Below, one piece after another: positions 27,408 to 38,659 of a stretch of DNA of 64,000 nucleotides. Within the stretch, counting starts at the first letter, position 1; every line of letters starts with the position of its first letter. Origin of the DNA: Nitrospirota bacterium (lineage in GTDB: Bacteria > Nitrospirota > Nitrospiria > Nitrospirales > Nitrospiraceae); NCBI GenBank assembly GCA_963703955.1, contig CAVPGK010000006.1, forward strand, positions 1-64,000. The letters are read 5' to 3'. Both the position numbers and the translations under genes were made by a program. Below the pieces are notes generated by a model. That model searched no databases. It worked only from the letters and a program-made list of their open reading frames with translations, and had not been told where the DNA came from.

Positions 27408-27653
27408 TTAATCATTTTCAAGATCGGTGAACGTTCTCCTGAGTATCTTCTTTTCTCAGGGATGGCTCTAGTTAATTGTTATCTATTATTTTTTTCTCAA
27501 TCAAAGCATGTTTAAAAGTCTTGTGCATGAAGGATTCATTGCACCATCTTTGCGAGCGAAGTCTATGAGCAGTCCGTACAGAAACAATTTGCATTTTTGT
27601 TATTGACATGTTTTCTAAGCCATGCTACAAAGCAAGCATGTTCATAAGAGGTC

Positions 27654-28169
27654 TTGCTTGTGGAAGAGCTAAAGGACATCATCGTTGGTCTTGAGCAGCG
27701 TATCAGCGCCTACAAGAATCGATTGCAGGAACTAGTTAAGAAACGGAGCCGTTTGGAAGAGGAAATCGCGACCATACACAAATATTTGGAACTTGCCGAA
27801 ACACTTTACCGAGTTGAAGCCGATAAGGCCAAACTCGCTAGCCTCTCCAGCCAAATTATTACTGACGATAAAGGGGTTCGGCCTCTTCCAGTCATGGACG
27901 TCACCGATCAATCTCGAGAGATTCTCTTGGGGCGCAGCAAGTATGTGGGGATGAGTGTTCCCGAGGCCGCGTATCAGATTCTTCGTGAGGCTCAACATGC
28001 CATGCACGCGAAGGAATTGTTCCAACGCCTCGTGGAAGGCGGCATGCAGATTAAGGGGAAAACCCCCCTGACTTCAGTCGCAACTTCACTAAAAAGGGAC
28101 AAGCGCTTTCGGAAGGTTGGCCCGAATACATTTGAGGCGTTGGAGGAAACCTTGACCAAGGTGGTGTGA
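27654..28169 (+). CDS. Coiled-coil plus HARE-HTH-like DNA-binding protein
   Basis: N-terminal heptads. The C-terminal EAAYQILRE..HAMHAKEL...GKTPLTSVATSL..DKRF..VGPNTF matches the HARE-HTH pattern. Confidence 0.65.
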   Translation: MLVEELKDIIVGLEQRISAYKNRLQELVKKRSRLEEEIATIHKYLELAETLYRVEADKAKLASLSSQIITDDKGVRPLPVMDVTDQSREILLGRSKYVGMSVPEAAYQILREAQHAMHAKELFQRLVEGGMQIKGKTPLTSVATSLKRDKRFRKVGPNTFEALEETLTKVV

Positions 28170-28217
28170 GCTTCACGGTCGAGTAAGCCCTTAGCCCGTG
28201 AAAGGAGGTGAGTGCAC

Positions 28218-28256
28218 TTGGCGACGAAGAAGGCAGCGAAGAAGAAGAAGAAGTAA
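28218..28256 (+). CDS. Lys-rich micropeptide MATKKAAKKKKK (12 aa)
   Basis: Full-length SD AAAGGAGGTGA (28201-28211), 6-nt spacer, TTG start, TAA stop, terminator hairpin downstream. Confidence 0.6.
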   Translation: MATKKAAKKKKK

Positions 28257-28269
28257 CCCAGCCTGGATA

Positions 28270-28313
28270 ACGCCGGGGGTGAGGCCACTTGCTCCCGGCG
28301 TCACCTTTCCTTT
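28270..28313 (+). terminator. Intrinsic terminator, possibly bidirectional
   Basis: Stem ACGCCGGG/CCCGGCGT followed by a pyrimidine run, located between convergent genes. Confidence 0.6.
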
Positions 28314-28370
28314 GCCAGAGTACCCCAGCAGAAGAATCTACTCAACCGTTCGGTGAGAAACCGCAGGAAT

Positions 28371-29291
28371 CTAGTAGGAGGAAACCTGGAGGTGTGCGGT
28401 CTGAGAAGGCTTGGGCTTCGTGTAGACTGGTTTCTCTTCCATCGTGACCAAGCTCCACTTTTCTGGCTGCTCAAGAATACTTTGTACCAATTTGGCGTGC
28501 AGCGCGTGTCCGGCACGATCAGCCTTCAGATGGCCGATGAACGGCACACCGAGCAATGCAAGGTCGCCGATCAAATCTAAAATCTTGTGGCGGACGAACT
28601 CATCCTGAAAACGAAGGCCTGACTCGTTCAGCACTCCGTCTTCGGACAAAATCACCGTATTTTCCAACGACCCGCCTTTGCCCAATCCTTTCGCCCAAAG
28701 GTGCTTCACCTCGTTTAAGAACCCAAATGTGCGCGCACCGGCGATGTCGCGTTCAAAGGCTGAAACCTCCCACTGATACACATAAGTCTGCCGCCTGATG
28801 AGAGGATGATCGTACTGAATCGAATAGGAAATGCGGGTGGTGGTAGCCGGTTCGAAGAGAATTCGTCGATTACCATCCACCACCTCAATCGGCTGCATAA
28901 TTTTCAAGAATGGCTGGTGACTATCCTGCGGGGCGATACCGGCTGCTCGAATGAGGTGTACGAAAGGGGCAGCGCTGCCGTCCATCACCGGCACTTCCCC
29001 GGCATCCAGCTCAACGAAGACATTATCAATACTGAGACCAACCAGGGCTGCCAGTACGTGCTCGACTGTCTTGACGACCAAGCCGTTTGTGCTGATGGTC
29101 GTACACAATTCCGCAGGAACAAGGTTCCGAACCGACGCAGAAAGTGCGACAGGACCCCCATCCTCGGTTCGAACAAACACGATCCCCGTGTTGGGTGGAG
29201 CAGGGCGAAGTGTGAGCGTCACCGGATTGCCTGTGTGAAGCCCCACTCCTGAGCAGGTGATCGTCTGAGCGATGGACTGTTGATACCTCAT
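28371..29291 (-). CDS. lpxC: UDP-3-O-acyl-N-acetylglucosamine deacetylase LpxC
   Basis: GVGLHTG, TVEHVLAAL, PVMDGSA, ARTFGF, HKILDLIGDL and GHALH. Confidence 0.96.
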   Translation of the reverse strand: MRYQQSIAQTITCSGVGLHTGNPVTLTLRPAPPNTGIVFVRTEDGGPVALSASVRNLVPAELCTTISTNGLVVKTVEHVLAALVGLSIDNVFVELDAGEVPVMDGSAAPFVHLIRAAGIAPQDSHQPFLKIMQPIEVVDGNRRILFEPATTTRISYSIQYDHPLIRRQTYVYQWEVSAFERDIAGARTFGFLNEVKHLWAKGLGKGGSLENTVILSEDGVLNESGLRFQDEFVRHKILDLIGDLALLGVPFIGHLKADRAGHALHAKLVQSILEQPEKWSLVTMEEKPVYTKPKPSQTAHLQVSSY

Positions 29292-29334
29292 GGGTCCTCT
29301 GTGAGCCCTCTTGGAGCAAACTACTGCATGCACC

Positions 29335-29350
29335 AGCAACTCTCATGCCA
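29335..29350 (-). promoter_or_regulatory. sigma54 (-24/-12) promoter of lpxC
   Basis: TGGCATGAGAGTTGCT, which is GG-N10-GC, 43 nt upstream of the ATG. Confidence 0.7.
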
Positions 29351-37232: not shown

Positions 37233-38159
37233 TCATGCCGGCTCGAAGAGCGCATCGACAAATTCGCGGGCGTGGAAATCCTGTAAATCATCGGCCGCTT
37301 CCCCCACCCCGATTAAACGAACGGGGATCTTCAATTCCTCCGCAATCGCGACGACAATGCCGCCGCGCGCTGTACCATCGAGCTTTGTGAGCGCAAGACC
37401 CGTCACGCCGATCCCCTGATGAAACTGCCTGGCTTGTGAAAGCGCGTTTTGACCGACCGTCGCATCCAAGGTGAGCAGCACCTCGTGGGGAGCTCCGGGC
37501 AATTCACGAGCCAAGACTCGTTTGATCTTTCGTAGCTCGTCCATAAGGTTGACCTTTGTATGTAGGCGACCTGCCGTATCGATCAGGACCACATCGACGC
37601 TACGCGCCTTGGCAGCTGCCAGACCGTCAAAGACCACCGCCGCCGGATCTGCTCCATGACGATGCCTGATGACGTCGACACCGATCATATTCCCCCACGT
37701 TCCGAGTTGCTCGATGGCCGCGGCGCGAAATGTATCCGCGGCCACAAGGAGCGGAGTTCGCCCGTCTTGCTGAAGTCGCCGAGCCAATTTGGCCAGAGTG
37801 GTCGTCTTGCCGACACCGTTCACCCCCACGGTCAGGATCACAAAGGGGCGTGGTCCGTGTTCAATAAGATGTGCGATCGTGTCGGCTTCACAGGCACGAA
37901 GGGCTTCCAGAATCGTTTCTTTCAGAACGTCGACCATCCCGCCAGGAGTCCGATGATCCGATCCTCGGGGAAATGCTTTGAGTCGATCCATAAGTCGTTC
38001 GACGGTAAGAATCCCAAGATCGGCGGCGATCAGCGAGATCTCAAGTTCCTCTAGCACCGCAGGGTCCGGACCTTTTCCCATAAGTCGATCCACCGACTCA
38101 CGGACCTTGCTGCGAGTCTTCCCCAACCCTTCGCTGAGCCGTTGTAGCCAACCACCCAT
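37233..38159 (-). CDS. ftsY: SRP receptor FtsY
   Basis: GVNGVGKTTT, DTFRAAA, DTAGR and TKLDGTARGG. Confidence 0.96.
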   Translation of the reverse strand: MGGWLQRLSEGLGKTRSKVRESVDRLMGKGPDPAVLEELEISLIAADLGILTVERLMDRLKAFPRGSDHRTPGGMVDVLKETILEALRACEADTIAHLIEHGPRPFVILTVGVNGVGKTTTLAKLARRLQQDGRTPLLVAADTFRAAAIEQLGTWGNMIGVDVIRHRHGADPAAVVFDGLAAAKARSVDVVLIDTAGRLHTKVNLMDELRKIKRVLARELPGAPHEVLLTLDATVGQNALSQARQFHQGIGVTGLALTKLDGTARGGIVVAIAEELKIPVRLIGVGEAADDLQDFHAREFVDALFEPA

Positions 38160-38200
38160 CTCTTTGCTCCAGGGAAAACCGGATTTGCACCATCTGCGTT

Positions 38201-38659
38201 CTACTTTCTTCTCAATACAAGCCTCGGAAGCGGTGTGAGAGAGCGAAAGATCGCCTGTTCCCTCCGGCGCATACGACGGGCATCTCGCTCGCTGCGTTCA
38301 TGGTCGTAACCCATAAGGTGCAACGCGCCATGAACGATGAGCTTCACAATCTCTTGATCGAGAGATACTCCATATTCAAGAGCTTGACGTGCAGCCGCAT
38401 GAAGCGAGATCACCACATCACCTAGAAAAAAGGATGGAGGCCCCTTGGCCTCTTGCGTGGCAAAGGCAAGGACGTCGGTTGTAGCATCCTTTCCGCGATA
38501 CTTCCGGTTCAGCCTCCGCATCCGAAGGTCGCCGATGAGATCAAGGCTGATTTCAGCCTCAGGCTGACCGGTCGCAGTCAAAATCTGTTGTGTCACTGTC
38601 TTGATTTCAGGCAGGAGAACGATGGGATGTCGAAGCCGGCATTTAAGCCACACTGACAT
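38201..38659 (-). CDS. ybeY: rRNA maturation endoribonuclease YbeY
   Basis: LNRKYRGKDATTDVLAF, LGDVVIS and HGALHLMGYDH. Confidence 0.95.
   Translation of the reverse strand: MSVWLKCRLRHPIVLLPEIKTVTQQILTATGQPEAEISLDLIGDLRMRRLNRKYRGKDATTDVLAFATQEAKGPPSFFLGDVVISLHAAARQALEYGVSLDQEIVKLIVHGALHLMGYDHERSERDARRMRRREQAIFRSLTPLPRLVLRRK

Follow-up and report, generated by a model that had tools for sequence, protein, structure and literature searches.

The locus

Between a HARE-HTH gene and lpxC in a Nitrospirota genome lie twelve lysine-rich codons behind a long Shine-Dalgarno (SD) match, and the locus raises the question whether these codons are a gene and, if so, what so small and basic a product would do. 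The stretch of DNA analysed, here called the window, is 64,000 nt long, and its features of interest are the following.

27603-27631, + strand: predicted sigma-70-type promoter (TTGACA-17 nt-TACAAA) upstream of the HTH gene
27654-28169, + strand: gene for a 171-aa HARE-HTH protein, candidate nucleoid-associated; start at TTG 27654 or GTG 27660
28172-28202 (arms at 28172 and 28196), + strand: 5' inverted repeat TTCACGG/CCGTGAA, chance-level and outside the conserved element
28200-28211, + strand: extended SD site, a 12-nt complement to the genome's own 16S 3' end
28218-28256, + strand: micro-ORF MATKKAAKKKKK, 12 codons plus TAA, with 7 Lys and a TTG start
28270-28301, + strand: 14-bp hairpin with GCCA loop, likely the 3' end or terminator between convergent transcripts
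28371-29339 (ATG start 29291), - strand: lpxC, the convergent neighbour, found in 55/72 related loci tested

The first-pass annotation of this DNA had described an SD-led, TTG-initiated Lys micro-ORF with the longest SD match in the window, and both observations hold. The SD (AAAGGAGGTGA at 28201-28211) stands 6 nt before the TTG of the micro-ORF, whose codons are TTG GCG ACG AAG AAG GCA GCG (AAG)5 TAA, and its match to the 16S tail extends over 12 nt, with 9 nt for the runner-up in the window. Genome-wide, matches of at least 12 nt occur at only four sites, the 16S gene itself among them, and the (AAG)5 run occurs once. A GG[AG]GG motif leading into an ORF of 8-70 codons with at least 40% Lys is found for only two ORFs in the 3.3 Mb genome; the other one (contig C4, about 38143-38220, + strand, 25 codons, 40% Lys) is also Arg-rich, and a Pfam search with it returned no match. 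All seven Lys codons are indeed AAG, as had been remarked, but this is only mildly unusual (AAG has a share of 0.62 among the genome's Lys codons, giving 7/7 a P of about 0.04), and related copies of the micro-ORF use AAA too. GTG 28212 was rejected as an alternative start; it abuts the SD, and at the 40 loci whose spacer is 5 nt long it does not share the reading frame.

Conservation and coding signature

Relatives were located by way of the upstream HARE-HTH protein and not the peptide. The protein was matched in 51 of 61 close genomes, which are kin and not independent samples; 50 loci from those 51 genomes and 12 deeper-branching ones, drawn from 85 matches in a 301-genome search of the phylum, make up a set of 62 anchored loci. 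Two of these run off their contigs, and two of the anchors (L049, L050) are broken HTH genes. A micro-ORF with SD is present at 62/62, so that SD and frame, whose conservation the first-pass annotation had proposed as the check on its reading, are both kept throughout the set. The GG[AG]GGTGA core is found in all 62, followed by a spacer of 5-7 nt and a start codon that is TTG in 49, ATG in 11 and GTG in 2. With the 51st genome (L190) and five of the ten genomes that lack an HTH match, the micro-ORF is found in 56/61 close genomes. Of the remaining five, G004 and G012 (95% and 98% complete) carry a different gene next to lpxC and gave no match to the micro-ORF pattern, G048 has nothing at the lpxC locus, and for G010 and G055 no lpxC locus was obtained.

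Homologues of the HTH protein bear Nitrospira/Nitrospiraceae names, and the window likely belongs to that family. Eighteen twelve-codon copies belong to the window's family; they encode an identical peptide, and 25/25 of their minor letters fall at third positions. Over all 23 twelve-codon ORFs, five of them from another family, the minor letters divide 19/12/52 by codon position, a split that becomes less pure with distance partly because the five other-family copies are out of register. Among 31 aligned short copies the ORF lengths step by whole codons (31/31), and the spacer from stop to hairpin in the same copies represents all three frames. Adjacent AAA-AAA codons number 20 against a permuted mean of 40.4 (0/1000 permutations as low), an avoidance that fits selection against slippery poly(A). 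As judged from these substitution and length patterns, it is the peptide sequence rather than the nucleotide sequence that is conserved, and the twelve-codon micro-ORF is real, a conserved coding micro-gene that is likely translated.

Across the 62 loci the encoded peptides consist of Lys (52%), Ala (32%), Pro (7%), Thr (5%) and a little Arg (1.3%), with no aromatic residue, and end in Lys or Arg. They range from 11 to 71 aa, the long forms being H1-like repeats of KKAAKKKAPA or KKKPAA, and 11/62 loci carry a second copy of the micro-ORF; this range and the second copies fit a product whose charge and dose matter. Stand-alone paralogues of 52 aa (L188, in G058) and 30 aa (L189, in G018) were also seen away from the HTH locus, each with an SD and a hairpin.

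RNA structure and transcription

The hairpin behind the micro-ORF folds at a z of -4.0 (0/200 shuffles as good) and is maintained by covariation: in 31 sequences, both partners have changed in 11 of its 14 pairs, and pairing holds in 99.3% of cells. The loop is GCCA in 22, GCCC in 7 and GCTA in 2, closed by a G-C pair in 31/31; deeper lineages have other hairpin loops. Thus the structure behind the terminator of the first-pass annotation stands, but termination itself is less clear-cut, since only 4 T occur in the 10 nt after the hairpin, and a terminator scan found no terminators and did not call the 28270-28301 hairpin. At least five T follow the hairpin in 26/60 relatives (hand count).

The arms of the 5' hairpin that had been proposed do exist, but their fold is at chance level (z -1.43, 16/200 shuffles as good), their pairing probability drops from 0.55 to 0.00 once more flanking sequence is folded, and relatives do not conserve the stretch, so it was discarded as a functional element. 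Pairing of the SD with a C-rich stretch after the stop was also rejected, being absent from the consensus fold, and that stretch is missing from deeper lineages; the consensus fold has no conserved SD-sequestering or alternative structure. Rfam at gathering score found nothing at the micro-ORF site and a single tRNA in the whole window. The suggestion of a dual-function RNA accordingly finds little support, the 3' hairpin being the only strong consensus structure.

A -35/-10 pattern similar to the predicted promoter, TTGAC-17-TA(C/T)AAA, precedes the HTH gene in 44 of the 61 loci tested, while a stricter promoter scan did not list the 27603-27631 site. This shared promoter, and the lack of a conserved hairpin between HTH gene and micro-ORF, suggest co-transcription, and the promoter likely drives both genes. 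At 9 of the 12 deep-branching loci the TGA within the SD doubles as the stop codon of the HTH gene, an overlap that suggests translational coupling. Read-through into an HTH-peptide fusion at such coupled loci was considered and dismissed; several have a second in-frame stop right after the TGA, and no fusion is among the homologues listed. AAGC/GCTT words recur in the promoter region (27603-27660; L001-L048), often as palindromes overlapping the spacer or the segment after the -10, and could be a putative operator for autoregulation by the HTH protein.

Three of four RNA-library runs from one study contain near-identical contigs over the micro-ORF, one of them 787 nt long (27947-28733), and in two further RNA studies contigs of relatives cover it. 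These contigs are weak support for transcription: the runs were chosen for containing this stretch, assembled contigs give no strand or level, and the 787-nt contig enters the convergent lpxC, so that it may reflect DNA carry-over. In addition, runs X1-X4 and X6 hold many contigs of other organisms that match only 28217-28257 and have their own SD and ATG, and hence related genes are present in soil-type RNA libraries. The SD and start of the window copy are predicted to be mostly paired, with local sequence that is not conserved; together with the unstranded, unquantified RNA contigs and the TTG start in 49/62 loci, this leaves the high expression proposed earlier not established.

The upstream HARE-HTH protein

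The neighbouring gene had been called HARE-HTH-like, and the Pfam match bears this out (PF05066, E 3.5e-11, residues 100-160); no second match was found in this genome (82% complete). The predicted model has a 68-residue helix (2-69), a low-confidence linker and a C-terminal winged helix (mean pLDDT 79.9). A Foldseek search with it found nothing at E 0.001; the top row, not significant, was the DNA-binding domain of Rok (E 4.4e-3, 17% identity), closely followed by Z-alpha, forkhead and delta domains (delta E 0.03-0.3). As a homodimer the protein scores 0.57, against 0.00 for the best of three controls, with a mark that 20/30 solved pairs and 1/23 single chains reach, although coiled coils resemble many solved dimers and the pass may reflect that likeness. 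The dimer runs agree in at least 79% of contacts (pLDDT at least 72) and place residues 2-63 in antiparallel register. The prediction is thus of a dimer that joins two winged helices through an antiparallel coiled coil, a build resembling that of DNA-bridging nucleoid proteins. In 22/22 aligned sequences about 10 residues follow the winged helix, with no acidic tail.

Rok of Bacillus subtilis and Sso10a share its build of oligomerising helix, linker and winged helix, as described for the Rok/H-NS type (PMC11841835). Sso10a is reported to dimerise through an antiparallel coiled coil that carries a winged helix at either end (PMC11894785), the arrangement modelled for the HTH protein, but neither gives a significant structural match, the domain order of Sso10a is the opposite, and DNA bridging by the HTH protein is predicted from likeness of build. 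Distant proteins with a coiled-coil plus HARE-HTH build were also noted (P0157, P0160, P0163, P0166, P0181, P0237, P0248, P0263), some with two HTH copies; together these seem to form a broader family, as yet without a name, of candidate nucleoid proteins. No description of this candidate nucleoid-associated protein in Nitrospirota was found in the literature searched.

Relatives beyond Nitrospirota

A pattern built from the SD plus roughly the first nine codons, with no stop required, matched at least 120 stretches of genome contigs in the 24 of 64 database parts covered, of an estimated total of about 330. Record titles include Methylomirabilota/Rokubacteria, Eisenbacteria, Planctomycetota, Patescibacteria, Bdellovibrionales, Acidobacteriota, Verrucomicrobia and Omnitrophota, a few of which look mis-binned, and several Nitrospirota rows duplicate loci of the close-genome set. 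The pattern ORFs are short (128/129 have at most 50 codons and 77 at most 16; two are cut by contig ends). Matches to the HTH profile occur at 24 of the 120 loci, all within the 27 Nitrospirota-titled ones. Outside Nitrospirota, where the longest flanking ORFs of 65 loci were surveyed, neighbours are lineage-specific (an AbiEi-like gene with recG, a sigma-54 activator with uvrA, prmC, nrdR, secA and others), and no common partner or shared nucleoid gene was found among them. The sequence is of such low complexity that homology and convergence cannot be told apart, across phyla or with H1-like proteins. Within the phylum, a pattern shaped on the longer form hit 24/301 genomes, which is no presence/absence count as it misses this genome, and a looser pattern found the micro-ORF in 0/5 genomes of families without the HTH gene, a result that does not show absence.

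What the peptide may do

The reading we lean towards, with modest confidence, is that the peptide acts as a free polycation of minimal size, similar to an H1 tail; it would likely be co-transcribed with a nucleoid protein and would bind DNA or RNA by electrostatic attraction. The first-pass annotation had likened it to a histone-H1 tail, and the conserved SD, start and frame, the third-position variation and the H1-like repeats of the long homologues agree with that comparison. One transcript would run from the conserved promoter through the winged-helix gene and the micro-ORF to the hairpin end, and the extended SD would bring 30S subunits onto the weak TTG start. The initiator Met would be removed before Ala2, as expected from Met aminopeptidase, and the 11-12-residue, +7 Lys/Ala product would be disordered and neutralise nucleic-acid charge through the phosphate backbone, like an encoded polyamine. 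It would act alongside the co-expressed predicted dimeric DNA bridger without being bound to it. Going by its sequence, the product is likely among the smallest histone-H1-tail-like polycations, and it is kept in most of the related nitrite-oxidiser-group genomes examined.

By analogy with repeat peptides, it would bind and compact DNA. KPAA-repeat peptides (PMC9239181) and AAKKA/PAKKA-repeat peptides (PMC10739243) are reported to bind DNA in vitro, but in each series of the latter no significant binding to DNA was seen for the two shortest peptides, and the third required 150-200 uM (PMC10739243), so an 11-mer may bind weakly. The window peptide is short but denser in Lys, which makes strong condensation uncertain. 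Such a polycation could equally target rRNA or polyphosphate. A much wider proposal, which we regard as rather unlikely, would have ribosome-made polyamine-like peptides, encoded by as few as 11 codons and overlooked by gene callers, compact the nucleoid in many soil and groundwater bacteria across phyla; in Nitrospirota they would be co-expressed and ancestrally coupled with an unrecognised DNA-bridging winged-helix protein, making up a two-gene counterpart of linker histone H1 with its Lys-rich tail in trans.

Several other readings of the same peptide have to be weighed. It might be a small basic protein that associates with the ribosome and occupies an rRNA pocket, in the manner of bS22/mS38, Thx or eL41; its size and charge, the very strong SD and the spread of the gene over many phyla would fit, and translation genes occur among the neighbours outside Nitrospirota (prmC 5, rpmB 1 and aminoacyl-tRNA synthetase 2 in the 65 loci scanned). 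Such ribosomal peptides, however, keep a fixed length and are rich in Arg, whereas here Arg is rare, aromatic residues are absent, length varies six-fold through repeat expansion and second copies occur. The genome moreover encodes a separate COX24_C/mS38-type protein (PF08213, E 3.8e-11), a basic protein of 31 aa on the - strand of contig C7. Family profiles of ribosomal peptides gave no match for homologues of 24-71 aa, and a 33-aa homologue had no PDB sequence match at E 10; we think this reading unlikely. Somewhat less likely still is that the peptide is a by-product, with the docked ribosome stabilising the 3' end of the HTH mRNA or Lys-tRNA supply tuning termination at the hairpin. The pairing of a very strong SD with a weak TTG start in most loci speaks for this, as does a loop held to GC(C/T)(A/C) with its G-C closing pair in 31/31 while the stem covaries, which is more than a plain terminator needs. 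Yet no conserved SD-sequestering or alternative structure is predicted, and with lpxC convergent there is no same-strand gene downstream, so nothing to attenuate; the Ala/Pro/Thr repeat expansion and the AAA-AAA avoidance fit a selected product, and the unit survives loss of the HTH gene. A main target among other polyanions (polyphosphate granules, acidic proteins or anionic lipids) has a precedent in AlgP, whose H1-like KPAA domain is reported to associate with and space polyphosphate granules (PMC9239181), and a sequence-poor polycation has no evident target specificity; but no polyphosphate gene was found among the neighbours of the 65 loci scanned, and the linkage to a winged-helix gene in Nitrospirota points to DNA, so we hold such a target to be improbable. 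That there is no gene at all, only a conserved purine-rich spacer reading as Lys codons by chance, might be argued from the exact sequences of 13 longer-homologue references being missing from a collection of 15 billion proteins. A protein search with the 71-aa homologue had no match at E 0.01; both are weak tests for low-complexity peptides. Third-position bias, whole-codon length steps, start-codon interchange and fixed SD spacing make this the least credible of the readings, one to which we give almost no weight.

The first-pass annotation had also speculated on a split RNA polymerase delta subunit. As such a split delta, or as a split linker-histone analogue, the peptide would be a Lys tract separated from the HARE-HTH protein and would work in complex with it. 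HTH gene and micro-ORF are adjacent in 62/62 anchored loci, the stop-codon overlap at the deep-branching loci would suit such a split, and delta N-terminal domains are among the weak Foldseek rows. The likeness to delta (RpoE, TIGR04567) comes down to a HARE-HTH domain in the upstream protein and a short Lys tract nearby. Delta is one chain, with the opposite domain order and an acidic C-terminal region of its own, with which its K-tract is described as acting by pairing (PMC9674986); the HTH protein has its coiled coil first and then the HTH, lacks the acidic tail and scores 14.7 bits against TIGR04567, where the cut-off is 42. No fused HTH/K-tract form is among the 270 homologues listed, and a run of at least 6 K per 12 residues was found in none of the best 120 of 746 near and 150 of 673 distant HTH homologues. 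Beside the 93 loci without a Nitrospirota title, no HTH relative is detectable (40 of the 120 loci have only about 300-nt flanks). Eleven loci retain an intact micro-ORF although their HTH gene is broken (L049, L050, L190), reduced to a faint remnant (L183, L186) or undetectable (L051, L109, L184, L187, L196, L197); among the genomes concerned, some are identical or sisters to each other, and two are complete in a single contig. An intact HTH gene without the micro-ORF was not found among the fetched loci. The micro-ORF being kept after HTH loss, the peptide does not need an HTH partner, and the split-delta idea appears highly improbable.

Comparison with known systems

If the H1-tail-like polycation is the right reading, the nearest known systems are the bacterial H1-like proteins: chlamydial Hc2/HctB (PF07382), Bordetella BpH1, the Burkholderia H1-like proteins (NF038053) and the C-terminal domain of Pseudomonas AlgP. 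Common to these and the peptides are low-complexity repeats of Lys, Ala, Pro, Thr and Val and in-frame repeat gain and loss, by which H1-like proteins are reported to vary in length (PMC2848022). Their sizes differ (Hc2 165-237 aa, BpH1 182-206 aa and AlgP about 350 aa, against a whole product of 11-71 aa here, with 12 in the window copy). The length of the 12-mer does not suffice for a profile scan; the long homologue L031 has H1-like families as its best hits but stays far below their cut-offs (NF038053 23.4 bits against 80, PF07382 16.7 against 40). By score, then, the peptide is no member of PF07382 or NF038053 and would be a new minimal form of H1-like Lys/Ala/Pro tails. The AAKKA/PAKKA tails of mycobacterial Ku and HU-type proteins use the same residue alphabet but are fused to folded domains, where the micro-ORF is a free-standing gene; repeat peptides excised from such tails are reported to bind and condense DNA once long enough (PMC10739243).

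The peptide differs from bS22/mS38, Thx and eL41 in its variable length and Lys/Ala make-up, and the homologues tested had no profile match. Small basic ribosomal peptides are likewise tiny and highly basic and often go unannotated. Gene callers skip the micro-ORF, and standard proteomics would miss its product, which trypsin would cut to pieces. A description of the family was not found in the literature covered (titles and abstract openings of openly accessible papers), though small-protein catalogues in supplements could contain one. If translated, the micro-ORF is among the shortest conserved bacterial genes, and the 11-71-residue forms are a natural series for testing the shortest H1-like polycation that still matters; cultured Nitrospira bring the main predictions within reach of testing. 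The surprise is capped by the fact that the basic H1-like function class is already known.

Variant arrangements in other lineages

Some peculiar relatives were noted outside the anchored set. (i) Among viral contigs there were two pattern matches (L191, L192), neither a micro-ORF: the same SD and Lys-rich start, from about position 1515, introduce an ORF that is 100 codons or longer, the peptide thus forming the N-terminal tail of a longer phage protein. (ii) In the Methylomirabilota/Rokubacteria-type loci L064-L070, L074, L075, L091, L098 and L130, one or two tandem micro-ORFs lie between a gene of about 355 codons, with a weak AbiEi-antitoxin-like match, and recG, or rpmB in one locus. (iii) Eisenbacteria-type loci (L056-L058, L071, L073, L080 and others) have a near-invariant GGACCTGGCACGTCC after the gene for a 22-aa peptide and before a variable hairpin, and Rokubacteria-type loci have conserved hairpins of their own; such lineage-specific conserved RNA tails may be part of the micro-genes.
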